Shown in pieces: positions 3,517 to 55,944 of a stretch of DNA of 64,000 nucleotides (position 1 is the first letter of the stretch; every line of letters starts with the position of its first letter). Below the pieces are notes generated by a model. That model searched no databases, was not told the origin of the DNA, and was given only the letters and a program-made list of their open reading frames with translations. The position numbers were made by a program, and so were the translations under genes. Origin of the DNA: an uncultured bacterium (GTDB lineage: Bacteria; Actinomycetota; Thermoleophilia; Solirubrobacterales; 70-9); NCBI GenBank assembly GCA_963811625.1, contig CAWERS010000001.1:28320-92319 (forward strand). The letters run 5' to 3'.

Positions 3517-3556
3517 CTGCGAAGCGCAAGGCGGTCTCAGGGCTCGGTCGAGCCCG

Positions 3557-4960: not shown

Positions 4961-4986
4961 AGCGCCAGGATAGCCTTCGCGCCGCT

Positions 4987-6216: not shown

Positions 6217-6278
6217 GGGCGTATCGTAGGTAGCGGGGAGTCCGCAACTGGCGAACGGCCAGCCATACGGGACATGAG

Positions 6279-7423: not shown

Positions 7424-8779
7424 CTAGTCCTCGGGATCGAGGCCCAGCAGCGCCGCCACCTCGCGCCCGAAGGCGCCGACGATCTCGCCCGGATCGGGCA
7501 CAAGGCCGCGGTCGGCCATCACGCCGACCGTCACCTCGCCGGCGTAGCTCAAGATCGAGATGCTCATCGAGACGCCGCCAGAGGTAGGGGCCCAGACGAG
7601 CACCCCACGCACCGGTGTCCCGGCGAGGTAGACCGGCTCGCGCGGGCCCGGGACATTGGTCATCACCGCCGAGCCGGCGGCGGAGAAGAGGTCGAGCAGT
7701 CGCTGCTCGACCGCCGCCGGCGTCGCCCCAAGGGCGCCGAGCAGCCCGTAGCCGATCGCGCCCTCGGGCGAGTCCTTGATCTCGACCATCCGTCGGTGGA
7801 CCTCCTCCAGGCGCCGGCGGGGATCCTCGATCCCGACCGGGACCGGCAGCAGCACGAGCCCGAAGTGGTTGCCCAGGTCGCGCGGCAGCGGCTCGTCGAG
7901 CGGGCGGAGGTTGAAGGGGACGAAGGCGTGCAGCTCGTCGACGAGGCTGTCGCGCTCGGCGAGATAGCTGCGCAGCGCTCCGGCTACCGCCGCCAGCAGC
8001 ACGTCGTTGACGGTCGTGCCGGTCGCGTGCCCGACGGCCTTCACGTCGTCGAGCAGGATCGGATCGGACCAGGCGACCTGCTCGGCCACCCCCAGCTCGC
8101 CCTTGAAGACCGTGCTCGCGTCGGGGCTCGAGAAAAGCGCTTTGGCGATGGCCTTGGCGTCGTCGCGCGCAGCCGCGGCGAGGTCGATTAACTCGGAAGG
8201 GTCGCGGACCAGCTCGACCACCTCGTGGGTGAGGCCGCCCCCGACGTCGCGGCCGATCGAGGCGGCGCGTCGGGCGGGGCGAACCAGGTCGCCGACCAGA
8301 CCGCTGACCCCGCCGCCGTCGGCCTCCTCCGGTTCCTCGGGCTTGATGCCCGCGTCGGGCTGGGCGTCCGTCAGCGAAAGCAGGACCCTCGCCAGCGCGA
8401 TCCCATCGGCGATGCAGTGGTGCATGCGAGCGACGATCGCGGAGCCGGAGCCATAGCCGTCCACGAGATACCAATGCCACAGCGGACGGGACCGGTCGAG
8501 CGGTTGCGCCGTGAGATCGGCGACCAGCTCTTGCAGCGCAACCCGGTCGCCAGGGGCCGGCAGCGCGGTGTGGTGCAGGTGCAGGTCGAGGTTGAAGTCG
8601 GGGTCGTCCTCCCAGCTCGGACCGCGCAGCGGGATGCGGCTCTCGCTCACCCGCTGGCGGAAGCGCGGGAAGCAGTCGACCAGGCGTGTCGCGATCACCT
8701 CGCGCACCTCATCCCAACTCAGCGGCTCGTCGAACCACAGCGCCCCGGTTATGACCATGAGGTTGGTCGGGCGATCCAT
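7424..8779 (-). CDS. Wax ester synthase/diacylglycerol acyltransferase (WS/DGAT)
   Basis: 451-aa ORF with catalytic HHCIADG (HHxxxDG) motif and the N-terminal MDRPTNLMVI typical of the family. Confidence 0.9.
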   Translation of the reverse strand: MDRPTNLMVITGALWFDEPLSWDEVREVIATRLVDCFPRFRQRVSESRIPLRGPSWEDDPDFNLDLHLHHTALPAPGDRVALQELVADLTAQPLDRSRPLWHWYLVDGYGSGSAIVARMHHCIADGIALARVLLSLTDAQPDAGIKPEEPEEADGGGVSGLVGDLVRPARRAASIGRDVGGGLTHEVVELVRDPSELIDLAAAARDDAKAIAKALFSSPDASTVFKGELGVAEQVAWSDPILLDDVKAVGHATGTTVNDVLLAAVAGALRSYLAERDSLVDELHAFVPFNLRPLDEPLPRDLGNHFGLVLLPVPVGIEDPRRRLEEVHRRMVEIKDSPEGAIGYGLLGALGATPAAVEQRLLDLFSAAGSAVMTNVPGPREPVYLAGTPVRGVLVWAPTSGGVSMSISILSYAGEVTVGVMADRGLVPDPGEIVGAFGREVAALLGLDPED

Positions 8780-8781
8780 GT

Positions 8782-8855
8782 CCCGGGCTGAGAATCCGAA
8801 GGTCCTGCGCGCCAGGACCGGCGGACTAAGCCCGGACAGCGGCTCGACTGGTCCG
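8782..8855 (+). repeat. Intergenic repeat family 2, copy R2
   Basis: CCCGGGCTGAGAATCCGAAGGTCC-tgcgcgcca-GGACCGGCGG...CGGCTCGA. Lies between the WS/DGAT start (8779) and the MFS start (8872). Confidence 0.7.
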
Positions 8856-8871
8856 CAATCATGGGGCTCAC

Positions 8872-10251
8872 GTGAGCGACGACTGGTCCTCGCACGCGAT
8901 CGGCGGGGCGCTATCCATTGCCGTCGGCCTGGTGCTCGCCGACTCCTCGGTGGTGGTCCTCGCGCTGCCCGAGATCTACCGCGACTTCAACGTCTCCGTC
9001 AACGCCCTGATCTGGGTCCTCGTGGCGTTCAACCTGGTGCTCGCCGCGGCGGCGGTCCCGGCCGCGCTCGTGGCACGCCGGCTGGGCCCGGCACGGGTTA
9101 CGTCGGCGGGGCTTGCCGTGTTCGCCCTCGGCGGCCTGCTGTGCGGCCTCTCGACTTCGCTGGCGCCGCTGATCGCCGCTCGCTGCCTCCAGGCCATCGG
9201 CGGCGCCGCCGCGGTCACCGGCGCGCTCGAGCTGATGCCATTCGCGGTCGGCTCGGAGCGCCGGGCGGCCACCGTCTGGGCGACGGCCGGTGCGATCGGC
9301 GCGGCGCTCGGGCCGGCGGCCGGCGGCGTGCTCACCCAGCTCGTTTCCTGGCAGTCGATCTTCCTGGTCCAGGTGCCGCTGGCGATCGCGGTCGCGATCC
9401 CCGTGCTCGCCGTGGCCCGCCTGGAATCGACCGACGCGACGCGACGCGGCGAGCTCCGGGCGACGGGGCGGCCGCATCTGGCCGCAAACCTCGCGCTGTG
9501 CCTGGTCTCGGCGGCGCTGGCGGCTGCCCTCTTCCTGATCGTCCTGTTGCTGATCGAGGGCTGGAGGTACTCGCCGATCGTCGCCGCCCTGGCGGTCTCG
9601 GTGATGCCGCTCGCCGCACTGGGCGCCCGCCCGCTGGCCCGGGCCGTGCACGACGCCCGCGCTCGCGCCGCCGCCGGGGCGATTCTCGTGGCGGGAGGGC
9701 TCGCCGGCCTGGGCCTGCTTCCTCGGGCGCTGATCCTCGCAACGTTCCCCTCGCAGATCCTGGTCGGCGTCGGTCTGACGCTGGTGCTCTCGGCATTGAC
9801 GGAGACTGCCCTGGAGGGCGACGCCCCGCAGGCGATCCACGGGGGTTGGACGATCACAGCCCGCCACGCCGGGGTCGTCGCCGGACTCCTCGTGCTGACG
9901 CCGATCTTCACCGCCGATCTGGTCACCGAACGGGGTGCCGCCGAGCAAGCCGGCACCGCGGCCCTGCTCGATGCCGATCTTCCGGTCACCTCCAAGATCG
10001 ATCTTGCAGAGCGTCTGGCCGCTCAGCTCTCCACCGAGCGGGGCAAGGTACCCACCGTCGGATCGGCGTTCGACCAGCTTCCCGGCGATCCGGTCGAGCG
10101 CGCCGAGGCCCTGCGGCTGAAGAGCACGCTCCAAGACGATCTCGACCGCGCGGCGACCCACGCTTTCAGGAACTCGTTTCTGATCGCCGCCGGCTTTGGT
10201 CTCGCGGCGCTCCTGCCGATCGGCCTCGGGCGTAGAAGGGTCAGCCTGTGA
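8872..10251 (+). CDS. MFS transporter
   Basis: 459-aa ORF with multiple hydrophobic helices and an MFS-like N-terminus (LADSSVVVLALPEIYRDFNVSVNALIWVLVAFNL). GTG start, exact start uncertain. Confidence 0.7.
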   Translation: MSDDWSSHAIGGALSIAVGLVLADSSVVVLALPEIYRDFNVSVNALIWVLVAFNLVLAAAAVPAALVARRLGPARVTSAGLAVFALGGLLCGLSTSLAPLIAARCLQAIGGAAAVTGALELMPFAVGSERRAATVWATAGAIGAALGPAAGGVLTQLVSWQSIFLVQVPLAIAVAIPVLAVARLESTDATRRGELRATGRPHLAANLALCLVSAALAAALFLIVLLLIEGWRYSPIVAALAVSVMPLAALGARPLARAVHDARARAAAGAILVAGGLAGLGLLPRALILATFPSQILVGVGLTLVLSALTETALEGDAPQAIHGGWTITARHAGVVAGLLVLTPIFTADLVTERGAAEQAGTAALLDADLPVTSKIDLAERLAAQLSTERGKVPTVGSAFDQLPGDPVERAEALRLKSTLQDDLDRAATHAFRNSFLIAAGFGLAALLPIGLGRRRVSL

Positions 10252-10772
10252 GGCCGCGTGTCCTCGTGGTCGGCGCCGCAATCGCCTCGCTGGCGCTGGT
10301 CCTCACGTCATTGGCGCTCGGCGGCGCGTCGTACGAGCCAAGTCCAGTCCAGGATCCGTGCAAGCCGCGTCCCTGGCGCTCCCCGCAGGGCATCGACCAG
10401 GTCGCTCAGCAGCTGACCCTCTCGGCGCTCGACGGCGCCGCCTGCGAGCTCCATGTCTCGCGCGAGACCCTGGTCCTCGCCCTGGGAACCGCGGAGGGGC
10501 GATCCCAGTTTGCGAACGACCCACGCCTCGCAGCCGCGCTTCGCGCTGGCCTGATTCGGGCCATCGACGACGCCGAGCGCGCCGGCGCGATACCCGGGAC
10601 CGTCGCCGACGGTCTGCGAGCGGTCGTTGAAAGCCTCCCCACCGACAGGCTTGTCGCCGCCCTGATGAACGCCGCCAACCTGTTCGATCAGGCCCGCGGC
10701 GTGCTCGGTCCGCTGGGCGATCTCCTGGGAGCGCTCGGATGTTGTGAAGTGCAGACGCTCGAGGTCAATTGA
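10248..10772 (+). CDS. Hypothetical membrane-anchored protein
   Basis: 174-aa ORF. Its GTG start overlaps the MFS stop (GTGA). N-terminal hydrophobic helix, high GC3. No recognised domain. Confidence 0.55.
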   Translation: MRPRVLVVGAAIASLALVLTSLALGGASYEPSPVQDPCKPRPWRSPQGIDQVAQQLTLSALDGAACELHVSRETLVLALGTAEGRSQFANDPRLAAALRAGLIRAIDDAERAGAIPGTVADGLRAVVESLPTDRLVAALMNAANLFDQARGVLGPLGDLLGALGCCEVQTLEVN

Positions 10773-12273
10773 TTGCGTAACGCGCCAGTGCCTCCTGTCG
10801 CGCCGCGAGGTGGTCGACCATCGGGTGTGGGTAATCCTCGCCGATCACGCAGTCAACCCGGTGCTGGACCTCGATCGGCATCCTCCAGGGCTCGCGCAGG
10901 TGCTCGTCGGGCACGGCGCAAAGCTCGGGCAGGTTGCGGCGGACGTAGTTTCCACTGGGGTCGTAGCGCTCCATGTGACGCGTCGGGTTGTAGATGCGTC
11001 TGAAGGCAGGTTGGGGATCGACCCCGACCGACGCGATCCATTGCCAGTTGCCGTTGTTGTTGGCCTCGTCGCCGTCAATCAACAGGCGCATGAACCAGCG
11101 CTCGCCCCATCGCCAGTCGATGCCGAGGTCCTTGGTCAGGAACGAGGCGACGACGAGGCGAGCCCGATTGTGCATCCATCCCTCGTGGCGGAGCTGGCGC
11201 ATCCCGGCATCGACGAGCGGATATCCCGTTCGTCCCAGCGTCCAGGTTTCGAAGGCTCGCTCGGCGCGGCTCCAGCGGATCGAGCCCCGGTAGCGCTGCT
11301 GAAACTCCGAGCGGGCGTTGCGGGGAAAGTGCCGAAGCACGTGGTGATGGAAGTCGCGCCAGCAGAGCTGGCGTCGAAACGCGTCGGCTCCCTCGCCCCG
11401 CGGCAGAAGCTGCTCGACCTCGCGGGGAGAGAGGCAGCCGAGGTGCAGATAGGGGGAGAGGCGCGATGTCTTGTCCTCGCCGAGCGCATCCCGGTTCGAC
11501 CCGTATCGCCGTACGTCGGTGGCGAGAAAGCGGCGCAGCCGCTCGCGCGCCGGGCCCTCCCCGCCCCGGAGGGGCTCGGTGACCTCCTGCTCGAGCCCGA
11601 GCTCTCGGAGCTGGGGCAGGCGCCCGCGTCGCAGCCTCGAGGGGAGCGGCGGCAGCTTGCGCGGCGCGCCGAGCGGCGCGCGGCGCCCGCCGCGAAGCCA
11701 AGCACGATGAAACGGCGAGAAGACCGTGTACGGGCGGCCCTTCCCGGTGCGAAGCGCGCCGACGTCGTCCACCGTGGTCAGGCCGGGGTGGGCGACGAGC
11801 CCGATCCCAGCTTCGCGACAGGCCTCCTCGACTCGCTGATCACGACGGCGCGAGTATGGACTGACGTCGGCGGTGAGGTGGACCGTGTCCGCGTTCACCT
11901 GATTGGCAAGCTGAGGCAGTTCATGCTCGGGCGGCCCGCGCCGCACTACGAGGCTGGAACCGCGCACCCGCAGCGAAGCGTGGAGGTCGGCGAGACACTC
12001 GAGCAGGAACTGGGTGCGCGACCCGGACGCATGGCGACCGTGCAGAAGACGGTCGTCGAAGCAGAACACCGGCACGACTCGGTTGTGGTGGTCGAGCGCA
12101 GCACGCAGCGCCGGATGGTCGTGCAGCCGCAGATCGCGGCGAAGCCAGACCAGGGCGGTCAATGCGAGATCCGGATCACGGTGTCCGTGGACCCGCCTGC
12201 TTTCGGTACTCGGCCTCGTAGACGGGTTGCCCGGTGGGCTCCTCTCGGCGCCCGTGCCTCGCGGTGCGGGCAA
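10765..12273 (-). CDS. phr: Deoxyribodipyrimidine photolyase (cryptochrome/photolyase family)
   Basis: Motifs WLRRDLRLHDHPAL, CWRDFHHHVL, TGYPLVDAGMRQL, GWMHNRARLVVASFLTKDL, DGDEANNNGNWQW. The true start is probably downstream of 12273 (for example GTG near 12192), because the ORF overlaps the MMPL stop. Confidence 0.9.
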   Translation of the reverse strand: MPAPRGTGAERSPPGNPSTRPSTESRRVHGHRDPDLALTALVWLRRDLRLHDHPALRAALDHHNRVVPVFCFDDRLLHGRHASGSRTQFLLECLADLHASLRVRGSSLVVRRGPPEHELPQLANQVNADTVHLTADVSPYSRRRDQRVEEACREAGIGLVAHPGLTTVDDVGALRTGKGRPYTVFSPFHRAWLRGGRRAPLGAPRKLPPLPSRLRRGRLPQLRELGLEQEVTEPLRGGEGPARERLRRFLATDVRRYGSNRDALGEDKTSRLSPYLHLGCLSPREVEQLLPRGEGADAFRRQLCWRDFHHHVLRHFPRNARSEFQQRYRGSIRWSRAERAFETWTLGRTGYPLVDAGMRQLRHEGWMHNRARLVVASFLTKDLGIDWRWGERWFMRLLIDGDEANNNGNWQWIASVGVDPQPAFRRIYNPTRHMERYDPSGNYVRRNLPELCAVPDEHLREPWRMPIEVQHRVDCVIGEDYPHPMVDHLAARQEALARYAIN

Positions 12274-14353
12274 GCGACGAGGGCAGCCATACCGGGTCGC
12301 CGATATCGAGCACCAGGGCCGGCACCAGCAGCGATCTGACTAGGAAGGTGTCGATCAGGACGCCGACCGCGATCGTGAAGCCGATCTCGGTCAGCGCCAC
12401 GAGCGGCAGCACCGCCAGGGTCGAGAAGGTGCCTGCCAACACCACGCCGGCCGAAGTGATCACCGCCCCGGTGGCGGCAAGGCCTCGGATCGTCCCGCCG
12501 CGAGTGCCGTGCGTCAGGGTCTCCTCGCGCACCCGGGCCATCAGGAAGATGTTGTAGTCGATGCCGAGCGCCACCAGGAAGATGAACGCGAACAGCGGCA
12601 GGCCGGGGTCGATGCCATCGAACTGGAACACCTTCTCGAAGAAGAACGCTCCGATCCCCAGGGCGGCGAAGAACGAGACGATGACGGTCCCGATCAGGAC
12701 CAGCGGGGCAACGACGGCGCGCAGCAGCGCCATCAGGATCAGGAAGACGACGAGCAGGGCTATCGGGACGATGACGACGGTGTCGCGCGCCGTCGATTCG
12801 CGCAGGTCGCGCTCCTGGGCGGTGGGCCCGCCCACCAGGACGCTTTCGCCTCCGGCGGCGTGCACCGCCTTGCGCAGCCCCGGGATCAGGTTGAAGGCGG
12901 TCGTGCTGTAGGGATCCTCCGCAAGGGTGACCTCGAGCTTCGTGCCCGTCGGGCCCTGTTCCTCGTTCGGGGAGACCTCGGCTACGCCGGGAGCATTCGC
13001 CGCAGCGGTGCGCACCGCGTCGAGCTTCGACTCGTCGGTGACCACCACGTAGGTCGGCGCATTGGCGCCGGCGGGGAAGCCCTGGTTGAGCAGCTTCTGG
13101 CCCTGCACCGAGTCGACATCGTTCCGGAACCCGTTGCCGGTGGTCAGGTCGCTGTTGAGGTGGACCAACCCCAGGCTCATCACGGCCAGCACCGCCGTGG
13201 TCCCGATCCACACCCGGCGCGGGCCCCGGGCGACCCGCTCCGCGATCCGTCGCCAAGAGCCGTGGGTCTCATCGGCTCCCTCGGTGCCGTAGCGCGGAAT
13301 GAAGGGCCAGAAGGCGCGGCGCCCGAACACCGTCAGCAGCGCCGGGAGGAGCGTCAGCATCGAGATCATCGCCAGCGCGATCCCCATCGCGCCGACCGGC
13401 CCGAGCCCGGAGGTGCCCGTCACTTCGGCCAGGGTCAGGGTCAGGAGCGCCGCGATCACGGTCGCCCCGGAGGCGAGAATGACCGGGCTGGTTCGCGACA
13501 GCGTCCGCCGGATCGCGTCGTGCTTGTCCTCGTGCCGGCGCAGCTCCTCGCGGTAGCGCGAGACCATCAGCAGCGCATAGTCGGTGCCGGCGCCGAAGAC
13601 GAGCACCGGGAGGATCCCTCCGGACTGCCCGGTCACGGTCACCCCGGCCTCGGTGAGCAGGTAGCCGAGCCCGCGTGAGGTCACCTCGGCCAGGAGCACC
13701 GAGAAGAACGGGATCATCCAGAAGATCGGGCTGCGGTAGATGACGATCAGCAGGATCAGGACGAGCGCGCCGGTCGCGTACAGCAGGGTGCCGTTGATGT
13801 CGTTGAAGACGTCGACCGCGTCAGCCGAGAAGCCGGCCGGCCCCGTCACCTTGGCCACCAGACCGCTCGGCAGGGAGTCGAGCTCGTCCTTGATGTCATT
13901 CGGCGTCTCGGTGAGCACGTCCTGCGCAGCACCGGTGGCTCCCCGGGGCACGGTGATCGGCGTCGTCAACAGGGCGGTGGCGCCGTCGGCCGAGGTCAGC
14001 GCGGGCCCGGTCTTGGCCACGCCATCTCGGCGCTGGGCGTTGACTGCCGCGCGCACCTGCTGGATCGCGGCCCTGTCCTCGCCGGTCAGCCCGCCGTCGC
14101 GATGAAAGACGGTGATCGCGTCGGCCTCATCCTGCGATGGAAACCCCTTCAGCGCATCGATCGCCTTCACCGACTCCGCGTTTGCCGGAAGGTAGTCGGC
14201 GGGATCGTTCTCCTGGGCATCCTCGAACTTGCCCGACAGCGGCCCGATCGCCGCCGCGACCACCAGCCAGACGCCGATCACCGCGAACTTGGCGCGTCGG
14301 CCGCCGGGCAGCCGGGCCAGGGTGCTGGCGATCGGCCAACGCCTTTGCTTCAC
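12176..14353 (-). CDS. MMPL family (RND superfamily) membrane transporter
   Basis: 725-aa ORF with two blocks of transmembrane helices separated by soluble loops and a typical MMPL N-terminus. Its GTG start overlaps the cfa stop (GTGA at 14350-14353). Confidence 0.85.
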   Translation of the reverse strand: MKQRRWPIASTLARLPGGRRAKFAVIGVWLVVAAAIGPLSGKFEDAQENDPADYLPANAESVKAIDALKGFPSQDEADAITVFHRDGGLTGEDRAAIQQVRAAVNAQRRDGVAKTGPALTSADGATALLTTPITVPRGATGAAQDVLTETPNDIKDELDSLPSGLVAKVTGPAGFSADAVDVFNDINGTLLYATGALVLILLIVIYRSPIFWMIPFFSVLLAEVTSRGLGYLLTEAGVTVTGQSGGILPVLVFGAGTDYALLMVSRYREELRRHEDKHDAIRRTLSRTSPVILASGATVIAALLTLTLAEVTGTSGLGPVGAMGIALAMISMLTLLPALLTVFGRRAFWPFIPRYGTEGADETHGSWRRIAERVARGPRRVWIGTTAVLAVMSLGLVHLNSDLTTGNGFRNDVDSVQGQKLLNQGFPAGANAPTYVVVTDESKLDAVRTAAANAPGVAEVSPNEEQGPTGTKLEVTLAEDPYSTTAFNLIPGLRKAVHAAGGESVLVGGPTAQERDLRESTARDTVVIVPIALLVVFLILMALLRAVVAPLVLIGTVIVSFFAALGIGAFFFEKVFQFDGIDPGLPLFAFIFLVALGIDYNIFLMARVREETLTHGTRGGTIRGLAATGAVITSAGVVLAGTFSTLAVLPLVALTEIGFTIAVGVLIDTFLVRSLLVPALVLDIGDPVWLPSSLARTARHGRREEPTGQPVYEAEYRKQAGPRTP

Positions 14354-15664
14354 CGCGATCTCGCGCGGGCTTCGCTTTGGTCACGGGCGGGACCAAGATT
14401 CGGCGAACGGTCATTCGTCGCAGCCCGCGCCCCGGGGCTGGTCGGCAGGCGACAGGGGAACCCACTCGGCCAGGCCGGCTTAGCGAAGAGGAGTTGCAGG
14501 TCGCGCAGGCGTGCCTCGCGAAACCCGGCCTCCGAGATCGCGAGGTACATCTCCCAGAGGCGGCGAAAGCGCTCGTCGTAGCCGAGCTCTGCGAGCTGCT
14601 CCGAGGCCGCCAGAAAGCGTTGGCGCCAATGGCGCAGGGTGAGCACGTAGCTCGGGCCGATGTCATCGAGCCAGACCGGCCGCATGTCGGTCCGGCGGAT
14701 GACCGAGCGCTGGATCGCGCCGAGCGAGGGCAGGCAGCCGCCCGGGAAGATCAGCGTGTTGGAGAAGCTGCGTGCGCTCTTCTCGGCCTCGTAGGCGCGG
14801 TCATCGATCGCGATCGCCTGCAGGAACATCAGGCCGTGGGGCGCCAGCAGCGCGGAGCAACGCTCGAAGAAGGTGTCGAAGTACTCCCAACCGACCGCCT
14901 CGATCATCTCGATCGACGCCAGCCTGTCGTAGCTCCCCGTCAGCTCCCGATAGTCCGCGCCGAGCACCCGAACCCGCGATTCGAGCCCGGCGGCGCGGAT
15001 TCGCCCCTCCGCGTACTCGCGCTGCTCGCCCGAGATTGTGGTGGTGGTGACCCGGCAGCCGCGCCGTGACGCCGCGTAGAGCGCGAGCCCGCCCCAGCCG
15101 GTCCCGATCTCGAGCAGGTGCTGGTCGGGTCCCAGCTCGAGGGCATCGCAGATCCGCTCCAGCCGCGCCCGCTGAGCGTCCTCCAGCGTGGCCTCCGGCC
15201 GCTCGAACAGTGCGCTCGAGTACATCATCCACTCGCGGTCCAGAAACAGCTCGAACATCTCGTTGCCGAGGTCGTAGTGCGCGGCGATGTTGCGTCGAGC
15301 TCCGCGCCGAGTGTTCAGCACCGGCAGCGTCGCGGACTCGTTGGAGGGGGCGAAGCAGTGGTGCCAAGCGGCTGCGAAGGTGATCGCTGCGGCGAAGCTC
15401 GCGGGCGCCGATTCGAAACAGCGTGACCAGGTCGTCGGTGTCCCAGAGCCCCTCGGCGTAGGCCTGGCCGAGACCGACGCTGCGCTCTTTGACGAGCATC
15501 CCGTAGACGTCCGGTGAGAGGACGACGACCGTCGCCCGGAGGGCGGCGTCGTCCGGGCCGAAGCGATGGCAATCCCCGCTCCATCCCTCCCGCAGGTCGA
15601 TGCGGCCGCTCCGCACCCTCCCCAGGAGGGCGTGCACAGCGGCGCGCGCGGCCCGCTCGATCAT
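14350..15664 (-). pseudogene. cfa: Cyclopropane-fatty-acyl-phospholipid synthase, split by an apparent 1-nt frameshift
   Basis: The N-terminal part (MIERAARA...GLGQAYAEGLWDTDDLVTLFRI...LAPLLRP) is in the frame of ORF 14801-15664. The C-terminal part (NTRRGARRNIAAHYDLGNEMF...EIGTGWGGLA...) is in the frame of ORF 14350-15321. Total length is 1315 nt (3n+1). The frames switch at or near the G5 run at 15346-15350. Confidence 0.8.
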
Positions 15665-16456
15665 CGCCCCGCGACCCTCGGAGCGGATCGGTAAGCGTCG
15701 CCGCGGCCGCCGGCTCTCGCCCCGGGGTGGGGGTGATACCGCGCTCCCTTGAGCTTCAGACGCAGAGCGTTTGCGTAGATCCGGGCGGGGACCGCGAGCG
15801 ACATCGGCGGGTAGGTCAACAGAACGCGCGTCATCAGTGCGGGGGAGAGCTCACGCCGTCGCATCGCCAGCGTCGCGTCGAACACCCTGCTGCCTCCCTC
15901 GAGGTTGGCGATCCGGACGTGTAGGGCATCGCCCGGCTCCGTAATCCGCCATTCGTACTCTTGCTCCATGGGCATGAAGGGGGAGACATGGAGGCGCTTT
16001 GCGAGCCGCCCGCGGATGGGCCCCGAGCCATTCCGCTCGACCACATAGGCGTGGCGCTCGCGCCAGGGAATGTTCGTGACCTCGGCGATCACCGCCTCGA
16101 CACGCTCACCCGGCCCGATCGTAGAGGTAGTAGAAGCTGACCGGGTTGAAGCTGCGGCCGAGGTAGCGCAGGTGGGTGAGCAGGCGCACCGGGCCCTCCG
16201 GCCGGTGGCCGGTGCGCGCCTCGACCAGTCGCCGGGCCGACTCGGCCAGCGGGACGTCGGGGTCCCCAAGGTAGTCGGAGCGGCGGAACCGCACCGGCGC
16301 CGGGCGCCGCGCCGAGTAGAGGGGATGGCGGTCGAACAGCTCCGGGAGCTCGTCCAGATCGAGCAGAGTCATGAAGACCCGGTAGCGGAACGAGTGCTGG
16401 ACCTCGCCGAGGCGCCGGTGACGGACCCAGCCCTCGTAGATCGCCGAGCTGCTCAC
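15661..16456 (-). pseudogene. DUF1365 family protein, split by an apparent 1-nt frameshift
   Basis: SAIYEGWVRHRR...FNPVSFYYLYDRAG then a stop at 16106. The sequence continues as ERVEAVIAEVTNIPWRERHAYV in the frame of ORF 15661-16269. Total length is 796 nt (3n+1). Removing one C from the C3 run at 16109-16111 restores the frame. GTG start at 16456 overlaps the upstream stop. Confidence 0.8.
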
Positions 16457-17733
16457 GCGGCGATCCCCAGAGGCTCGGCTGCGGGCAGCGGCGACAGATT
16501 CCGCGTCAGCGGCTCGCAGGCGCGGAGCGCGCTCCACACGCCGTCCTCGTGAAAGCCCCAGCGCCAGTAGGCGCCGCAGTAGTGGGTGCGGTCTCGACCG
16601 CTGATCTCGCCGTGACGGCGTTGGGCGCCGACCCCGGCCCGTGTGAAGACCGGGTGCTGGTACTCGATCTTGCGGATCACCTTGGCGGGGTCGATCGCGT
16701 CGGTGCGGTTCAGGGTCACGCAGAATTCCCGGTCGGCCGAGAGCGCCTGCAGGCGATTCATGTGGTAGGTGACGGTGGTCAGGCCGGCTGGCTCGTCCAC
16801 CAGGTGGAAGTTCCAGCTCGCCCAGGCCCGCCGGCGGCGAGGAAGCAGGCGCTCGTCCGTGTGCAGGACCGTCTCGTTTCGCTGGTAGGGGAAGGAGCCG
16901 AGGATCTCCCGCTCGAGTGGCGAGGGGTCGGCCAGCATCCCGAGCGCCTGGTCGGAGTGGGTGGCGATCACGACCTCGTCGAAGTCCTGCGATCGGTCGT
17001 CGAAGGCGATCTCGACGCGATCGAGATGGCGCTCAATGCGCCGCACCGGCGTTCGCAGCCGGATGCGGTCGCGCATCGGGGCGATCAGCGCCTCGACGTA
17101 GGTCCGGCTGCCGCCGACGATCGTGCGCCAGCGGGGCCGTCCGGTCAGGGCAAGGATCCCGTGGTTGTCGAAGAACTCCGCGAGGAAGCTGGCCGGAAAG
17201 GACCAGAGCTGCTCCGGGTCTGCCGACCAGACCGCGGATACCTGGGGCACGATCAGTCGCTCGATGAAGTAGTCGGAATATCCGCCGTCGGCCAGGAACC
17301 GTCGTAGCGAGGGCCCGCTCCCGTTGGTCCCGATCAGCGCTCGGGCCTCCCGGTTGAAGCGAAGCATGTCGAGAAGCATTCGGTGAAAGCGCCGGTCGAC
17401 TAGGTGGGCGGGGTTTGCGAACAGGCCGGCCGGGCGGCTCGCCCATTCGAATTGGCCCGCCTCGTCGGCGACCGAGAAGCTCATGTCGGCGGGCTGGGTG
17501 GCGACCCCGAGCCGGTCGAGCAGCCGCCCGAAATTCGGATAGTTGCGGTCGTTGAAGACGATGAACCCGGTGTCCACGTTCCACGCACCGCACTCGGTCT
17601 CGACCCGGATCGTGTTGGTGTGGCCGCCGGGGTAGTCGGCGGCTTCGAACAAGGTGATCTCATGACCGGCGTCGTGGAGGCGGCGGGCGGCGACCAGGCC
17701 CGACACGCCGCCGCCGACGATCGCGACCCTCAT
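16453..17733 (-). CDS. NAD(P)/FAD-dependent oxidoreductase (amine-oxidase-like)
   Basis: 426-aa ORF with dinucleotide-binding N-terminus MRVAIVGGGVSGLVAARRLHDAGHEITLFEAADYPGGH. Sits in the usual position upstream of DUF1365 and cfa. Confidence 0.85.
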   Translation of the reverse strand: MRVAIVGGGVSGLVAARRLHDAGHEITLFEAADYPGGHTNTIRVETECGAWNVDTGFIVFNDRNYPNFGRLLDRLGVATQPADMSFSVADEAGQFEWASRPAGLFANPAHLVDRRFHRMLLDMLRFNREARALIGTNGSGPSLRRFLADGGYSDYFIERLIVPQVSAVWSADPEQLWSFPASFLAEFFDNHGILALTGRPRWRTIVGGSRTYVEALIAPMRDRIRLRTPVRRIERHLDRVEIAFDDRSQDFDEVVIATHSDQALGMLADPSPLEREILGSFPYQRNETVLHTDERLLPRRRRAWASWNFHLVDEPAGLTTVTYHMNRLQALSADREFCVTLNRTDAIDPAKVIRKIEYQHPVFTRAGVGAQRRHGEISGRDRTHYCGAYWRWGFHEDGVWSALRACEPLTRNLSPLPAAEPLGIAA

Positions 17734-18203
17734 GCGGACCCGCTGACCGGAGCCGGGGTGCGGCCGAAGCGATCTGCCAGGGTGGCGGCCAACCCCACCT
17801 TAGCCCGGTCGCCGACCCGCCGAAAGAGGAGGCCGAGGACCGGATCGGCGATGCGCAGCGCTCCCCGGAGGCGGAGCCTGGCGTCGTAGGTCACCTGCGC
17901 GCCGAAGCTGGGCAGGGCGCTCACCGTGATCGTGTCCTCGGAGACCACGGTCGGGGTCTCGGCGCGGAGCACCACACGGCGGGGCGGGTCGATCTCGACG
18001 GTGCGGTACTCGAGCGGGACGCGGCGACCGAGGAAGTCGGCGACGACGTGGAAGCGCGCCCCGACGCGCAGCGGCTCGTCGGTCAGGCTCCTGGCCTCGC
18101 TGACGCCCGGATCCCACTCGGCGGTCGAGCTGAAGTCGGCCAGATACTCGAACACCTCCATGGGGGATCCAGGTGAGGTCACGGTAGTTGCGTAGTGGGC
18201 CAT
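17730..18203 (-). CDS. SRPBCC (polyketide cyclase/dehydrase-like) family protein
   Basis: Track ORF 17730-19247 trimmed to ATG at 18203 (MAHYATTVTSPGSPMEVFEYLADFSSTAEWDPGV). ATGA overlaps at both ends (18203 and 17730-17733). Confidence 0.75.
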   Translation of the reverse strand: MAHYATTVTSPGSPMEVFEYLADFSSTAEWDPGVSEARSLTDEPLRVGARFHVVADFLGRRVPLEYRTVEIDPPRRVVLRAETPTVVSEDTITVSALPSFGAQVTYDARLRLRGALRIADPVLGLLFRRVGDRAKVGLAATLADRFGRTPAPVSGSA

Positions 18204-19255
18204 CAGGGGCTCCTCTCTGTCGTCTCTTCCTCGATCAGGTCGCCGAGCCGGGCGCACTCCGTCCAGAGTCGCTCCCGCTCCACCGCTGACTCCCGAGTCC
18301 AGGGGAGGCGGTGCTTCGCGCGTGGCCTGCGGTCGTGCCAGAAACCGCCCGAGCGCTGGTCGATCTCGTCGAGGTCGGCGGTCGCCAGCCAGACGATCGT
18401 GTCGGCGCCCTCGTGGGGGTCGCGAAGCAGCGGTCGCATCAACCTGTGGAAGCGGGGGAGCGAGCTGCTCAGACCGGGCGTGTCGGCCCAGCCGGGATGC
18501 ATCGAATGGCAGCTGATCCCGAGCTCTGCGAGCCGCTCGGCCCAAACCTCGGTGAGAACGACCTCGGCGCGCTTGGTGTGCGCGTAGAAGGATGGCCCGT
18601 CGAATTCGCGACCGTCCAGCTGAGGGTCGTCGACGTCGAGCCGGGCGGTGTACATGCCGCCTGAGGAGACGTTGATCACGCGGGCGCGGTCTCCGAGGCG
18701 GAGGGCTCCGACGAGCAGGCCGGTGAGCAGGAACGGGCCGAGCACGTTGGTGGCGAAGGCCAGCTCGACGCCGTCGTCGGTCCGCTGTCGTTCCGCCGGC
18801 AGAAGCCCCGCGTTGTTGACCAACACGTCGAGTCGCGGCTCGACGGCGGAGAAGCGCCGGGCGAAGCGCCGAACCGCCTCCAGGTCCGCGAGGTCGCATA
18901 GCTGCACCTCGAGCCGTGCGTCGGAGTCGAGGCGCGAGGCGATCCGCTCGCGTGCCGCCTCGCCCCGCTCGAGGTCGCGAACCAGCATGTGCACGCGCGC
19001 GCCGGCTCGAGCCAACCCCTCGCAGGTCGCCTCTCCCAGGCCCGAGCTCGCCCCGGTGACCAGGGCGACCTTGCCGGCGAGGCTGCCGGCGATCGCACTC
19101 GACCACGAGAGCCCTCGCAGGCGATAGCCGATCTTGGTATAGCCCGCCAGCGAGAGGTCGAGGACGGCATCCAGGAGGCTGGAGGCGGCGGTGGCGCTGC
19201 CCGGGCGCTGCTGTCCAGGACGAAGGGTCTGTCCAGGGATTGTACAAGTTGACAC
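18203..19255 (-). CDS. SDR family oxidoreductase
   Basis: Contains GKVALVTGASSGLG and a downstream SDR core. The ATG at 19411 or 19381 would overlap the divergent regulator gene, so GTG at 19255 is the most plausible start. This start is tentative. Confidence 0.75.
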   Translation of the reverse strand: MSTCTIPGQTLRPGQQRPGSATAASSLLDAVLDLSLAGYTKIGYRLRGLSWSSAIAGSLAGKVALVTGASSGLGEATCEGLARAGARVHMLVRDLERGEAARERIASRLDSDARLEVQLCDLADLEAVRRFARRFSAVEPRLDVLVNNAGLLPAERQRTDDGVELAFATNVLGPFLLTGLLVGALRLGDRARVINVSSGGMYTARLDVDDPQLDGREFDGPSFYAHTKRAEVVLTEVWAERLAELGISCHSMHPGWADTPGLSSSLPRFHRLMRPLLRDPHEGADTIVWLATADLDEIDQRSGGFWHDRRPRAKHRLPWTRESAVERERLWTECARLGDLIEEETTERSP

Positions 19256-19290
19256 GGGTGTCTTGTACCAGTTAGACTCGACGCTGTCAA
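19242..19290. promoter_or_regulatory. Divergent overlapping promoters with a candidate CarH/LitR operator
   Basis: Plus strand: TTGACA (19249-19254), 18-nt spacer, TAGACT (19273-19278). Minus strand: TTGACA (complement of 19285-19290), 17-nt spacer, TACAAG (complement of 19262-19267), 6 nt before GTG 19255. The inverted repeat GTACAAG (19242-19248) / CTTGTAC (19262-19268) straddles both. Confidence 0.5.
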
Positions 19291-19301
19291 GTGTTTGTCC
19301 A

Positions 19302-20228
19302 ATGATGGTCCAGCCCAATGACAGTCCGGATGCCGACGGTTCGGACCGCGGTGACTCAGCGCCCGCGGCCTCGGTCCGCATCGGTGAGATCTCCCGGCGA
19401 ACCGGGGTCAAGGCCGAGACGATTCGCGCCTGGGAGCGTCGCTACGGCCTCGTCGAGCCGGCGCGGAGCGCCGGTGGGTTTCGCCTCTACTCGTCAGCCG
19501 ACGAGGAACGCGTTCAGGCGATGCGCGACCTGATCGCCGAGGGCGTCTCGGCGGCGGAGGCCGCGACGCTCGCCAAATCGGGGGCCGGCGCGGCGGCTCC
19601 CTCCGTGCGCTCTCCGGATGCCGAGGCGGAGCGTCTTCGTGCCGCGCTGGAGGCGTACGACGAGGAAGCGGCGAACCGCGCCCTCGATCGAGCCCTGAGC
19701 GCCTTCTCGCTCGATGTCTTCACCGGCGCCGTGGTGCTGCCGGCGATCGCGGCGATCGGCAATCGCTGGGCCGCGGGTGAGGCCTCGGTTGCCCAGGAGC
19801 ACTTCGCCACCTCGGTCGTAAGGGGGCGTCTGCTCGCTCTTTCGCGAGGCTGGGGATCAGGACTTGGCCCGCTCGCGCTCCTGGCCTGCCCGCCCGGCGA
19901 ACAGCACGACATCGGCCTGATCGCGTTCGGGCTCTCGCTGCGAAACAGGGGCTGGCGGATCGTCTATCTGGGCCAGGAGACTCCGCTCGACACGCTTGCC
20001 GAGGCGGCCCGCAGGCTTGCCCCGGCCCTCGTCGTGGTCGGCGTCGCAGCCGCCGAGCCGTTCGCAGCCGCCGCTCCCGGGCTCGCCGAGCTCGCGGCCG
20101 TGGCGCCCGTGTGGGTTGGTGGCCGGGGGGTTAGCGAGGAGATGGCCCGCCGAGCCGGTGCGCGTGTGCTTGAGGAGCGCCCAGCCGAGGCTGCGGCGCG
20201 CCTCGCCGCGGACGCTGCTTATGCCTGA
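19302..20228 (+). CDS. MerR-family, cobalamin-binding light-responsive regulator (CarH/LitR type)
   Basis: Trimmed to ATG at 19302. MerR HTH VRIGEISRRTGVKAETIRAWERRYGL. B12-binding module with an exact Wx9EH motif (WAAGEASVAQEH) and GEQHDIG (ExHxxG, lower axial His). Confidence 0.85.
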   Translation: MMVQPNDSPDADGSDRGDSAPAASVRIGEISRRTGVKAETIRAWERRYGLVEPARSAGGFRLYSSADEERVQAMRDLIAEGVSAAEAATLAKSGAGAAAPSVRSPDAEAERLRAALEAYDEEAANRALDRALSAFSLDVFTGAVVLPAIAAIGNRWAAGEASVAQEHFATSVVRGRLLALSRGWGSGLGPLALLACPPGEQHDIGLIAFGLSLRNRGWRIVYLGQETPLDTLAEAARRLAPALVVVGVAAAEPFAAAAPGLAELAAVAPVWVGGRGVSEEMARRAGARVLEERPAEAAARLAADAAYA

Positions 20229-20739: not shown

Positions 20740-21399
20740 TCAGCGGACCAGCAGAAGGCGCAGAATCGGCTCGGCGCGTTTCGCCTCCGCCGGCTCGCCG
20801 GTGATCAGGTCGAGGTAGGTGTACGACTCGATCAGGCGGACGATCACGTAGGCGACCTCGTGCAGGTCGGCGGGCAATTCGAGGCGCCCTGCGTCGGCCT
20901 CCTCGCGCAGCAGGCCTTCAATCCAGCCGATCAGCCGCGGCTGGAACCCGGTCGCGGAGCGGGTCAGCAGTCGCATCGCCTGTTCGCCCTCCTCGCGCAG
21001 CCAGTGGCGCATCCCAGGGTTCGCGATCACGTCGTCGAGGAACCGTGTCACCACCTCAACGACGCGCTCGCCTCCGGTCGCCTTCGCATCCGCATCGACC
21101 TTCTCGAGCGTGCGCACCGCCAAGGACCAGATCACCTCGACCAGCAGCTGCTCGCGTGAGCCCACCCATCGGTAGAGCGTCACCCGATTGACCCCCAGCT
21201 CCTCGGCGAGGGCGCTCATGTCGATTCGCTCGGCGGCCTGCCATCTGCGGCGCGCGAGCTTGAAGGCGTCGAGCGGCCCGGGCGGCTGCGGTCGCTCCCC
21301 GTCCACCAGGGCGCTCTGCAGCCGCGTCTGAGGAGGTCCGGCGACCTCGTCGGGTGAGTGGGACTTCACCGCGTTCAGATCGTAGGTCACGGGTTGCAC
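20740..21399 (-). CDS. TetR/AcrR family transcriptional regulator
   Basis: HTH segment IDMSALAEELGVNRVTLYRWVGSREQLL. The GTG start lies 12 nt after the HMGR stop. Confidence 0.8.
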   Translation of the reverse strand: MQPVTYDLNAVKSHSPDEVAGPPQTRLQSALVDGERPQPPGPLDAFKLARRRWQAAERIDMSALAEELGVNRVTLYRWVGSREQLLVEVIWSLAVRTLEKVDADAKATGGERVVEVVTRFLDDVIANPGMRHWLREEGEQAMRLLTRSATGFQPRLIGWIEGLLREEADAGRLELPADLHEVAYVIVRLIESYTYLDLITGEPAEAKRAEPILRLLLVR

Positions 21400-21411
21400 G
21401 GTCGCGGCGCG

Positions 21412-22599
21412 CTATGGCCGATTGCGGCCGTAGAGGTCGTGCGCCCTGACCCATTCTGCGACGACGATCGCCCAGCCAAGTGAGAGCTCCCCGCAGAGCA
21501 CCGTTGCCGCGACGATCTCGGCCAGCTTGCGGACCTTCCCGGTCCCATGGCAGCCGAGCAGCTGCAGGCATTCGCGCTGGGTGGCGAGCCCCGTGCCGCC
21601 GCCGTGGGTGGCGACGATCAGCGACGGAAGCGTGATCGAGCCGTAGTAGTCGCCGTTGGGGAGCAGCTCGCTGAAGCCGAGCGCCGCGGAGGATTCGGCG
21701 ACATTGGCTGCATCCTGGCCGGTGGCGATGAACAGGGCAGCGATTCCGTTGGCCGACTGCAGACCGTTGTTGTTGACCCCGGACATGAACCCACCCAGGT
21801 TCGCCACCTGGCGCGCCCGGAACAGCTCGTCGCCGCTCGTGTGCATGTGCTTCTCGATCAAGGCGGCGGGAATCGTCGCCTCTGCGACCACGCGCTTGCC
21901 CCGCGTGCGCAGCACGTTGACCTGCGAGCTCTTCTTGTCGGTGGCAAAGTTCGACTCCAGATAGAAGTTGGTGATGCCCTCGTAGTTGGACGTGATCCAG
22001 GCGCACGCCGCGGCGGTCGCCTTGCCGGTCAGGTTCTGGCCCGCGGCGTCCCCGGTCGTGTAGTCAAAGCGCGTGAACAGGATCCGGCTGGCGGAGTACT
22101 GCTCGATGCCGCGCAGGCGGCCGGTACGCGTGGTGGTCTCGGCCGCCTGCTTGACCTCGGCGAAGTGCTCCGTGAGCCATTCCCCGAACGCTCGTGCCTC
22201 GCGGGCGCTCTCGAACACGAAGGCGGGTGCCCGCTGCATGGCGTCGTCCAGGATCGTGGTCTTCACGCCCCCGGCCTCGCGCAGCGTCTTCATGCCGCGG
22301 TTGTAGCTCGCCACCAGCGTGCCCTCGCTCGTGGCCAGGGGAACGTAGAACTCACCCTGCGCGTGCTCCCCGTTGACCAGCAGCGGCCCGGCAATGCCGA
22401 TCGGCACCTGCGCCACCCCGGTGAAGTGCTCGATGTTGCCGGGGAGAGCCGATGGATCGAAGGAGTAGTGGGAGACGTGCTCCAGTTCGACGCCCGTCTG
22501 TTGACGCAGGAAGGCCCGACGCGCTTTCGCGGCCCGGGGCGTGTAGTCGTTCTCGCGATCACGCGGGACTTTCTTGCGCTCCGATCGGGGAGGCGTCAT
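21412..22599 (-). CDS. Hydroxymethylglutaryl-CoA reductase
   Basis: 395-aa ORF with HMGR motifs VPIGIAGPLLVNG, PLATSEGTLVASYNRG, TGDAAGQN, ATHGGGTGL. Confidence 0.85.
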   Translation of the reverse strand: MTPPRSERKKVPRDRENDYTPRAAKARRAFLRQQTGVELEHVSHYSFDPSALPGNIEHFTGVAQVPIGIAGPLLVNGEHAQGEFYVPLATSEGTLVASYNRGMKTLREAGGVKTTILDDAMQRAPAFVFESAREARAFGEWLTEHFAEVKQAAETTTRTGRLRGIEQYSASRILFTRFDYTTGDAAGQNLTGKATAAACAWITSNYEGITNFYLESNFATDKKSSQVNVLRTRGKRVVAEATIPAALIEKHMHTSGDELFRARQVANLGGFMSGVNNNGLQSANGIAALFIATGQDAANVAESSAALGFSELLPNGDYYGSITLPSLIVATHGGGTGLATQRECLQLLGCHGTGKVRKLAEIVAATVLCGELSLGWAIVVAEWVRAHDLYGRNRP

Positions 22600-22634
22600 T
22601 CCCGGCAGCCTTGTCCAGAACCCGTCTTCACCGC

Positions 22635-23486
22635 TCAGCCGATCACTGGCCAGCGCCGTTGGGCCGCGAGCTCATCGAGGGTCCGCTGCATGAGCTCGGT
22701 GATCGCCTGGTAGACCGCGTCCACGTCGGGATCGGGACCGAACCGCTCGCGGAGGTCGATCGGCTCCAGCACCTGGATCGTGATCTTCGCCGGGAGTGCG
22801 ATGTGGCCGAACAGGTCCCCGACATCCAGTCCCCAGGGCAGGGCGAGTGAGACCGGGAGAACCTTGAGGCGGAACCGTGTGTCGAGCCGCAAGGCGCGGG
22901 CGAGGCCCTCACCGCGGGTCAGGAACAGCGCCGTTTCCTGACCTCCGATCGAGACGACGGGGACGATGGGCACGCCCGCGGCGAGGGCCAGTCGGACGAA
23001 TCCTTCGCGCCCCGCGAACTCGACGCGGTGACCGTGCCAAGACGGTCGGTGCGCCTCCCAGTCGCCCCCCGGATAGACGAGGACCGCGGCCTCCGCGTCG
23101 AAGGCTGCCAGCGCGTTCTCCGAGCTGGCCTCGATGGTCCCGTACCTTCGCAGCAGCGACAGCCACGGCGCCCTCATCACCAGGTGATGGGCGAGCTGGA
23201 AGAAGGGCCGCTCGACGCCGAAGCGCCGGTAGAAGCCGAGTGTGAACGCGAGGGTGTCCGGGGCGACATTCCCGCCCGAGTGGTTGCCCACGAGCAGGAC
23301 CGGGCCGCTGGCGGGAATCCGGTCAAGGCCGCGGATGTCCGGACGGAACCAGGCCGCGATCAGCGCCCAGGTGAACGGAAGGGAGCGCCGGATGTACACC
23401 GGGTCGCGCTCGCTCAGGGCCTCGTGGGCGACCCGACCGTGCTCCGGCTGACCTAAGGAAGACAACGACGCAAATTGTTGCAGCAA
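22635..23486 (-). CDS. Lysophospholipid/glycerol-3-phosphate acyltransferase family protein (PlsC-like)
   Basis: HX4D acyltransferase motif in LLVGNHSGGNVAPD, followed by PGGDWE. TTG start is uncertain. Confidence 0.75.
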   Translation of the reverse strand: MLQQFASLSSLGQPEHGRVAHEALSERDPVYIRRSLPFTWALIAAWFRPDIRGLDRIPASGPVLLVGNHSGGNVAPDTLAFTLGFYRRFGVERPFFQLAHHLVMRAPWLSLLRRYGTIEASSENALAAFDAEAAVLVYPGGDWEAHRPSWHGHRVEFAGREGFVRLALAAGVPIVPVVSIGGQETALFLTRGEGLARALRLDTRFRLKVLPVSLALPWGLDVGDLFGHIALPAKITIQVLEPIDLRERFGPDPDVDAVYQAITELMQRTLDELAAQRRWPVIG

Positions 23487-33267: not shown

Positions 33268-33550
33268 CCCGAAGGTCGCGGCCCCGCTGCTGGTGAAGCC
33301 CCGCTTGTTCTCACCCACTGGACCCTGGACGTCGATCCCCGGGGTATTGACGCTTGATCTGCGCTGGGTTGCCTCTCACTCTCGCTTGCGCAAGCGGGAT
33401 GCGCGGTCTGGGGCCACCTCATTCCCGCGACTAGGCTCGCCCTCCGGGAACGAGTAGGGGTCCCTCGGGGGCATCCCCAATAGATGAGAGGGCGATTGGC
33501 TGGGAGCCTCGGCAGGCAAGCAATCGACAGCCTGCAAGGAGGCATTCCCG

Positions 33551-55874: not shown

Positions 55875-55944
55875 GGCTCGCTCTCCTCCTGGTGGCTTGC
55901 CGACCGAGCCTACGCCCGCCGGCCCCGCCGCGCAAGCCCCGCGT

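Follow-up and report, generated by a model that had tools for sequence, protein, structure and literature searches.

The stretch of DNA considered here, which we call the window, comprises 64,000 nucleotides of contig CAWERS010000001.1 (assembly GCA_963811625.1) from an uncultured bacterium of the Solirubrobacterales (Thermoleophilia, lineage 70-9), with a G+C content of about 70%. Between 10765 and 20228 it holds a plus-strand gene for a regulator of the CarH/LitR type and, divergent from it on the minus strand, a row of genes for an SDR oxidoreductase, an SRPBCC protein, an FAD-dependent oxidoreductase, a DUF1365 protein, a methylase of the cyclopropane fatty acid (CFA) synthase family, an MMPL transporter and a photolyase (phr). 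These seven minus-strand gene families had been named in a preliminary description of the same DNA, and Pfam found every one of them at the places given there. For comparison, the FAD oxidoreductase of the window was used as query in a scan of one genome per species, which yielded the 80 related loci on which all counts out of 80 are based. Nearly all of them are labelled as Solirubrobacterales or other Thermoleophilia, a few only as 'uncultured Actinomycetes' or 'uncultured bacterium', and the top match to the query has 88% protein identity. Nearer relatives, with about 95-96% DNA identity, come from ENA metagenome contigs (L147-L150); L147 and L148 were verified by direct DNA alignment against the window, and L149 and L150 were picked up via the 90%-identity protein cluster that holds the CFA fragment of the window.

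The regulator gene (19302..20228, plus strand) matches Pfam MerR_1, B12-binding_2 and B12-binding, and its product consists of a MerR winged helix-turn-helix, a four-helix bundle and a Rossmann B12-binding domain. CarH of Thermus thermophilus (TtCarH, 5C8D) aligns with residues 25-295 of the regulator at E=5.9e-39. In this alignment WAAGEASVAQEH falls on WHRGEIGVAEEH of TtCarH, which is the Wx9EH motif with W131, E141 and H142 of TtCarH in register, and GEQHDIG falls on H177, in the loop of the lower-ligand histidine, so that ExHxxG is in register as well. The Pfam domains and the alignment thus agree with what had been noticed beforehand, namely a MerR helix-turn-helix, an exact Wx9EH and GEQHDIG, and also with the CarH/LitR-type identity proposed from them, here refined to a class I homologue. 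The recognition helix reads IRAWERRY, and its R, W, E, R and Y align with TtCarH and show little or no variation among 54 regulators (that of the window plus 53 orthologues, the set behind all motif counts). All 54 regulators share RxWERRY, the W and EH of Wx9EH, and the E and H of ExHxxG without change, and 52/54 have the Gly of ExHxxG. An intact Wx9EH together with the B12 motif is the published criterion for telling CarH-like from CarA-like proteins (PMC9304148); judged by it, the motifs point to a CarH-like and not a CarA-like regulator. By its domains and motifs it is a class I-type member of the CarH/LitR family of adenosylcobalamin (AdoB12)-dependent photoreceptor-repressors. A divergent regulator gene was found in 53 of the 80 loci. 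As a separate observation, L147 carries an IS5-like transposase (DUF772 and DDE_Tnp_1) upstream, in the region 3345-6364, and its CarH gene gave fragmented tblastn matches only (63-88% identity) and no gene call, next to an intact operator; that gene is either degraded or badly assembled.

Published CarH operators are made of tandem 11-bp repeats of the form nnnnTnnACAn, one of which contains the -35 box (PMC9304148). In the orientation of the operon, the intergenic DNA of the window reads TGGACCATCAT TGGACAAACAC TTGACAGCGTC GAGTCTAACTG GTACAAGACAC CCGTGTCAACT TGTACAATCCC TGGACAGACCC, where the first three units are tandem 11-bp direct repeats (19280..19312, minus strand) that we take as the operator on the grounds of matrix score, conservation and likeness to the published repeat. 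Repeats 2 and 3 fit nnnnTnnACAn fully, and repeat 1 is a pseudo-repeat with ACC for ACA; where a CarH operator is expected to have three or more such repeats across the -35 or -10 element, the array in the window is made of two full repeats and one pseudo-repeat. The third repeat holds the -35 box of the operon, TTGACA (19290-19285). A strict regular expression for three GAC[AG] spaced 11 bp apart did not pick up this site, since its repeat 1 has GACC, and a position-weight matrix built from the repeat unit was used instead, with a cutoff of at least 20 bits for sites in the related loci. The operator scores 37.2 bits, against 15.7 bits for the best shuffle, and is the sole locus above threshold in the 64-kb window, where the only other match (24.8 bits) is this site again, offset by 11 bp. 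Sites that reach 20 bits or more lie at the boundary between regulator and operon in 52/80 loci, at the same position as in the window; no such site was found elsewhere within the 80 related loci, nor in 397 kb of unrelated control loci. As the operator repeats also span the 5' leader and the ATG of the regulator gene, autoregulation of the regulator is implied.

The two promoters are divergent and interlock at this place. For the operon, a -10-like hexamer TACAAG (19262..19267, minus strand) was read from the sequence, 17 bp past the -35 box and 6 nt before the GTG at 19255, and this position is kept as TAnAAn in relatives. For the regulator, TTGACA-18 bp-TAGACT (19249..19278, plus strand) is the sole sigma-70-like site that the consensus scan returned between 10000 and 20800, and its hexamers are kept as TTGAC(A/G) and TAGnCT in relatives; the same scan found no internal promoter-like site in the operon. 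Further into the operon lies a weaker pair of repeats, TGTACAATCCC TGGACAGACCC (19225..19246, minus strand), inside the 5' end of the SDR open reading frame (ORF). Both of its units fit TnnACA, and the pair is in helical phase with the first repeat, at a distance of 66 bp downstream; in the window it scores under the matrix threshold. A second site reaching 20 bits or more occurs in about 26 of the related loci. Its distance downstream of the first ranges from 43 to 67 bp and is mostly 64-67 bp (six repeat units of 11 bp); examples are L014, with three-repeat operators at 8000 and 8066, and L033, with such operators at 8362 and 8428. In these loci both core promoters are flanked by the paired sites, which share one face of the helix. 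No operator was found upstream of phr, neither in L148 nor in the 19 loci with phr in the vicinity. With a class I regulator and a conserved CarH-style tandem-repeat operator that overlaps the -35 box and is sited between regulator and operon, the best reading of this region is that the operon would undergo B12- and light-dependent derepression.

The SDR gene (18203..19255, minus strand; Pfam adh_short) is the first of the operon. Its ORF has no in-frame ATG, GTG or TTG start other than GTG 19255, and the corresponding position is an in-frame ATG in L001, L006 and L148, a GTG in L147, and an ATG also in L002, L003 and L040, which supports GTG 19255 as the start. Since this GTG lies only 6 nt past TACAAG, the SDR mRNA is likely leaderless. 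A side observation concerns L002 and L040, where the ATG just past the operon -10 opens an ORF of merely 17 codons (MSTYTVPVQTLPHAGSR) and the SDR start is an ATG further on. The start equivalent to that of the 17-codon ORF is, in the window, fused in frame with SDR. In many relatives the operon is opened by two small predicted membrane proteins of about 75 and 60 aa (in L014 at 8103-8330 and about 8327-8509), the first of which has a good Shine-Dalgarno sequence. The gene pair is similar in about 24 loci with a gap of 450-550 nt between operator and SDR, and is missing between promoter and SDR in the window and its nearest relatives.

After SDR come an SRPBCC/Polyketide_cyc2 lipid-binding-fold protein of 157 aa (17730..18203; Pfam Polyketide_cyc2), an FAD-dependent oxidoreductase of the amine-oxidase/phytoene-desaturase fold (16453..17733; Pfam Amino_oxidase and NAD_binding_8), a DUF1365 protein (15661..16456; DUF1365 profile on two ORF pieces) and a CFA-synthase-family S-adenosylmethionine (SAM) methylase (14350..15664; Pfam CMAS on the 3' piece), all on the minus strand. 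In the preliminary description the stops and starts of the operon overlapped throughout. The 4-nt overlaps ATGA 17730-17733, GTGA 16453-16456, ATGA 15661-15664 and GTGA 14350-14353 are indeed there; the one given as ATGA at 18203 is a TGATG, in which SDR and SRPBCC overlap by one base with ATG 18203-18201. The reported overlap of the MMPL and photolyase ORFs arises just with the longest photolyase ORF, which opens at TTG 12273. Translation of the photolyase probably begins at TTG 12162 (MTALVWLRRDL..., a conserved N-terminus), which leaves a gap of 13 nt past the MMPL stop at 12176, and the DNA upstream of the equivalent TTG in L148 is unrelated to that of the window. Missing from that description is a break in two of the genes: as this assembly writes them, DUF1365 and the CFA synthase are not a pair of intact coupled ORFs, each being split over two frames.

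The label of a photo-oxidative stress cluster, given to these genes at the outset, was right and can be sharpened. UfaD, UfaO and UfaM convert the vaccenate chains of phospholipids to 9M5-FuFA, a scavenger of singlet oxygen, and RPA2571-2570-2569 of Rhodopseudomonas palustris are required and also suffice for 9M5-FuFA (PMC7380195). UfaM itself belongs to the CFA-synthase family of SAM methylases and forms 11-methyl-12-trans-18:1 in place of a cyclopropane ring. In the window the Pfam order Amino_oxidase, DUF1365, CMAS is the order ufaD-ufaO-ufaM, as in RPA2571-2569, with the CMAS member placed after ufaO as in R. palustris. The UfaD likeness of the FAD oxidoreductase rests on the family description (NAD/FAD-binding, phytoene-desaturase-like; PMC7380195). 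We thus predict that the FAD oxidoreductase, the DUF1365 protein and the CFA-like protein correspond to a UfaD-like fatty-acyl desaturase, a UfaO-like protein and a UfaM-like methylase of the furan fatty acid pathway. Across the related loci, DUF1365 follows the FAD oxidoreductase in 79/80, the FAD oxidoreductase has an SDR orthologue ahead of it in 53/80, and a CFA-like gene adjoins ufaD-ufaO in 38/80; when the genes downstream of DUF1365 were clustered across loci, no conserved partner besides CFA emerged.

Both ufaO and ufaM are interrupted in the window. The first DUF1365 piece runs from 16537/16456 to a TGA stop at 16106-16108 and covers profile positions 1-107, and the second, in another frame, runs from 16269 to 15661 and covers positions 108-233, which together makes 1-233 of 235. 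The CFA-like gene occupies one frame from 15664 to about 15335 and another from about 15321 to 14350. Compared with eight relatives, both breaks come down to one extra base apiece: T near 16108 (GGG-T-GAG) and C near 15335 (GT-C-CGC). Intact counterparts exist close by: L147 (95% DNA identity) has an unbroken DUF1365 orthologue of 264 aa, 97% identical, as well as an unbroken CFA-like protein of 428 aa, a length at which the CFA orthologue P0001 shows 94% identity. Programmed frameshifting was also considered, given that L040, L149 and L150 break in the CFA N-terminal region too, and was rejected, no two of the indels being at the same position.

The last two genes are an MMPL-family RND transporter of 725 aa (12176..14353, minus strand; Pfam MMPL), whose nearest solved structures are MmpL4/MmpL5, and a cyclobutane pyrimidine dimer (CPD) photolyase (10765..12162, minus strand; Pfam DNA_photolyase and FAD_binding_7), which the NCBIfam photolyase models match under their cutoffs. 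The junction of cfa with MMPL is common to the window and L148 only. In L148 a 1.88-kb segment (11400-13283) with an opposite-strand NmrA/epimerase-like gene parts MMPL from phr. The window is without this segment; its flanks are joined at 12172-12174 via a CCG microhomology, which puts phr directly behind MMPL. In L147, L149 and L150 what comes after the CFA-like gene is an NmrA-like gene in convergent orientation, and no MMPL is present there; neither is MMPL found at the place after cfa in L001-L004 and L040, and in L006 a different, convergent MMPL (43% identical) follows cfa. Of the 80 loci, 19 have phr within 10 kb, and none has it downstream of the cluster on the cluster's own strand. 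The most economical history that these gene orders suggest is an insertion of MMPL after cfa in a recent ancestor, followed by a deletion that joined phr, stripped of the upstream region it had, to the operon. On this distribution MMPL and phr are recent, lineage-specific additions and not conserved members of the cluster.

Taken as a whole, the locus is probably a class I CarH/LitR AdoB12 photoreceptor-repressor with its furan-fatty-acid target operon. In the dark, a B12-bound oligomer of the regulator would occupy the three 11-bp repeats at 19280-19312, and as these overlap the operon -35 and the 5' leader of the regulator gene, both divergent promoters would be blocked. In the light, the Co-C bond of the cofactor would be cleaved, the oligomer would dissociate and transcription would follow. 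The conserved cargo (SDR, SRPBCC, the UfaD-like protein, the UfaO-like oxygenase and the UfaM-like protein) is predicted to turn vaccenate-type chains of the membrane into methylated furan fatty acids, and these products would scavenge singlet oxygen. In this particular lineage, MMPL would have been inserted after the methylase gene and a deletion of 1.9 kb would then have brought the photolyase gene behind it, so that both are now probably co-transcribed with the operon. What the analysis shows are the domains, the conserved motifs, the conservation and specificity of the operator, the order of the genes and how they were rearranged; binding of B12, response to light, the lipid made and co-transcription are inferred from these.

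Several points weigh against this reading. In the window regulator the SxT/V motif has Gly in place of Ser, and 33/54 regulators have Ala there; ExHxxG and the GG of the B12 motif are present. CarH, the top NCBIfam match of the regulator, scores under its cutoff, as do all NCBIfam equivalog models, including those for CarH and CFA synthase. The operon -10 is without the usual final T, so the consensus scan skips it. As the training set of the operator matrix is a subset of the sites later recovered with it, the independent evidence for the operator is its specificity elsewhere only. UfaM and a true cyclopropane synthase are indistinguishable by the sequence tools used, and the furan pathway would be inactive in the window strain if both frameshifts were real. 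Finally, in 27/80 loci the ufaD-ufaO genes have no divergent regulator upstream; CarH control of ufaD-ufaO loci is common, not universal.

The product of the pathway is where two other explanations come in. If both frameshifts were real, the ufaO- and ufaM-like genes would be recent pseudogenes, no modified lipid would be made, and the light-controlled transcript would serve mainly SDR, SRPBCC, UfaD, MMPL and photolyase. Both insertions are present in the deposited assembly, and a CFA product cut short to 323 aa has been recorded with 100% identity (P0025), so that the error, if there is one, resides in that assembly, and neither insertion falls within a long homopolymer. However, the sister contigs bear private single-base insertions of their own in the same 2.1 kb (six in L148, three each in L149 and L150 and none in L147, compared with two in the window), all at different positions, which is the pattern of random assembly errors, and split hits are frequent among related loci from long-read metagenome-assembled genomes. 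There is also no further decay: the frame past each insertion is open, with 94-97% amino acid identity to intact orthologues, and a synonymous change of an Arg codon, AGA to CGT, adjoins one insertion, which indicates that the correct frame is under selection. A third-position G+C (GC3) frame plot for other frameshifts in the window was too noisy, and a Pfam check of ten suspicious ORF pairs gave no clear split gene, so the case for an assembly error leans on the sister contigs and not on the error rate of the window itself. Since the close relatives have their own, different insertions, we regard the ufaO and ufaM frameshifts as very probably errors of (long-read) assembly, and recent pseudogenes as rather improbable. 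A product other than a furan, under the same regulation, is somewhat less far-fetched, though still doubtful in our view: the genes could make cyclopropane or mid-chain methyl-branched chains, as a CFA-like enzyme would, or some other oxidised lipid through SDR, SRPBCC, the FAD oxidoreductase and DUF1365. The top NCBIfam matches of the methylase are cyclopropane synthases, under cutoffs, and the presence of a CFA-like gene beside ufaD-ufaO in just 38/80 loci makes the methylase separable from the core. In addition, SDR and SRPBCC are conserved like the regulator, with the SRPBCC gene also present in 53/80 loci, yet their counterparts in Rhodobacter sphaeroides, RSP1087-1089, are dispensable for furan synthesis (PMC7380195). 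On the other hand, the pair of FAD desaturase and DUF1365 has so far been tied experimentally only to furan ring formation, the three-gene order is that of the proven R. palustris set, and light-induced Pseudomonas clusters with these families carry the annotation ufaM (PMC9758184).

In regards to the end of the operon, the seven genes had been taken for a single light-controlled unit, with export of a modified lipid by MMPL as a suggestion. That they form one functionally integrated light-stress operon, with MMPL exporting or flipping a lipid modified by the Ufa/CFA enzymes, seems unlikely to us. The arrangement itself is suggestive, since the MMPL start overlaps the cfa stop in GTGA 14350-14353 and phr follows 13 nt after MMPL, and the occurrence of the cfa-MMPL junction in L148 as well means that it is no misassembly of this contig alone. 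The survey of comparable clusters that the preliminary description had called for returned the arrangement only in L148, and a different MMPL paralogue (about 45% identical) after DUF1365 on the same strand in 4/80 loci (L027, L028, L036 and L072), which, with the convergent one in L006, gives a weak hint of repeated recruitment of MMPLs to the module. The export proposal had adjacency as its sole basis, and these four loci are the one further hint that we can add to it. Against an integrated operon stand the 65 orthologue loci obtained with the MMPL protein as query of a metagenome scan (mostly 53-80% identical, with a distant tail at 39-46%): in none of the 65, about 20 of which have at least 3 kb of upstream flank, is a cluster gene found near the MMPL orthologue. 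The neighbours of these orthologues vary and include P450, enoyl-CoA hydratase, acyl-CoA dehydrogenase, MFS and GAF-domain cyclase genes. The absence of this MMPL from L147, L149, L150, L001-L004 and L040, and the presence of only a different, convergent one in L006, point the same way, and the furan fatty acid pathway acts on phospholipid acyl chains in place, for which a transporter is unneeded (PMC7380195). Seven genes of long standing as one unit are thus not what the comparison indicates, with phr on the same strand downstream in 0/80 loci and MMPL orthologues beside cluster genes in 0/65; a conserved core to which MMPL and phr were added recently accounts for the distribution better.

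The regulator is like the CarH proteins of T. thermophilus, Myxococcus xanthus and Bacillus megaterium in domain order, in an alignment that takes in the full length of the protein (with TtCarH) and in RxWERRY, Wx9EH and ExHxxG, and the likeness to class I CarH systems extends to the tandem 11-bp TnnACA operator, one repeat of which holds the -35 TTGACA, and to the placement of the regulator gene itself under the operator. It differs from them in that the target in the window is a fatty-acid modification operon and not a set of carotenoid genes, in that the Ser of SxT/V is not kept, and in that many relatives of the window have a second three-repeat site, mostly 64-67 bp off and beyond the promoter. 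The host differs too, being one of the Thermoleophilia, for which no studied CarH was found in the searched literature. As for the cargo, RSP1091-1087 with ufaM in R. sphaeroides and RPA2571-2569 in R. palustris belong to the same UfaD/UfaO/UfaM families, with the R. palustris gene order and a role in singlet-oxygen protection; these are controlled by the singlet-oxygen-responsive sigmaE/ChrR and not by a B12 photoreceptor, and the operon has neither a transporter nor a photolyase gene. The RSP1091-1087 operon likewise has accessory genes along with the core, which presumably include an SDR and a small protein. In Pseudomonas, phrB, SDR, FAD oxidoreductase and ufaM lie beside a class II LitR and are light-induced (PMC9758184). 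The class II LitR clusters (PplR/PmlR) thus resemble the window in having a LitR-family regulator beside photolyase, SDR, FAD oxidoreductase and a UfaM-type methylase; however, class II LitR is B12-independent, is without the Rossmann B12-binding domain and acts with a LOV protein, whereas the window regulator has the full domain set of the B12 module, and no MMPL is described in the Pseudomonas cluster. The window MMPL shares its fold with mycobacterial MmpL4/MmpL5, its top solved-structure matches (E ~1e-52), and its top NCBIfam match is TIGR00833, the actII subfamily; it differs from MmpL4/MmpL5 in length (725 aa vs about 970 aa) and in having no MmpS partner or siderophore genes nearby.

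Nothing known is overturned by the locus, as there is a published precedent in Pseudomonas for phr and ufa genes under the control of a LitR-family regulator. What it would add is an extension of class I CarH from the carotenoid genes, its best-known targets, to the furan fatty acid pathway, in a soil actinobacterial order dominated by uncultured members and with a clear-cut operator. In the literature searched, we found no description of a B12-type CarH on this cargo, of its prevalence in Solirubrobacterales or of a frequent two-site operator, and no paper pairing CarH with 'furan fatty acid'. The comparison also defines 52 natural pairs of CarH and operator, of possible use in the mining of optogenetic parts, and it illustrates how a light regulon may grow, by the insertion of a transporter gene and then a small deletion that captures a photolyase gene. 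A wider proposal is more tentative: in the Solirubrobacterales, CarH might be the standard switch for furan-based membrane remodelling rather than for carotenoids, with a bipartite, in-phase operator whose three-repeat halves, about 66 bp apart, bracket both promoters, and with MMPLs recruited more than once to move the modified or oxidised lipid. If true, this would be the first B12- and light-controlled system for lipid modification and export.

The surroundings of the operon are hardly shared with other loci. When thirteen neighbouring proteins of the window were compared with the 80 loci, only the WS/DGAT protein was shared, in L002, and with flank synteny almost nil the neighbourhood gives no functional clue. 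Lipid genes abound on both flanks: on the regulator side, 20740-23486 encodes a TetR regulator, an HMG-CoA reductase and an acyltransferase, and beyond the photolyase gene, 7424-10251 encodes WS/DGAT, an MFS transporter and a protein of 174 aa that matches nothing in Pfam. At 3557-6315 (minus strand) a B12-binding radical SAM protein adjoins an ATP-grasp/L-amino-acid-ligase-like protein, and the two may form a small peptide-modification pair. Three ORFs stand in a row at 33488-36244 (plus strand), one for a PspC-domain protein, one for a histidine-kinase ATPase and one for a LuxR-type response regulator. The first two overlap, each in its own frame, and could be one gene split by another indel. 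At 55437-57717 (minus strand) a second full-length flavoprotein of the amine-oxidase family lies beside a SnoaL-like protein, unrelated to the ufa cluster.

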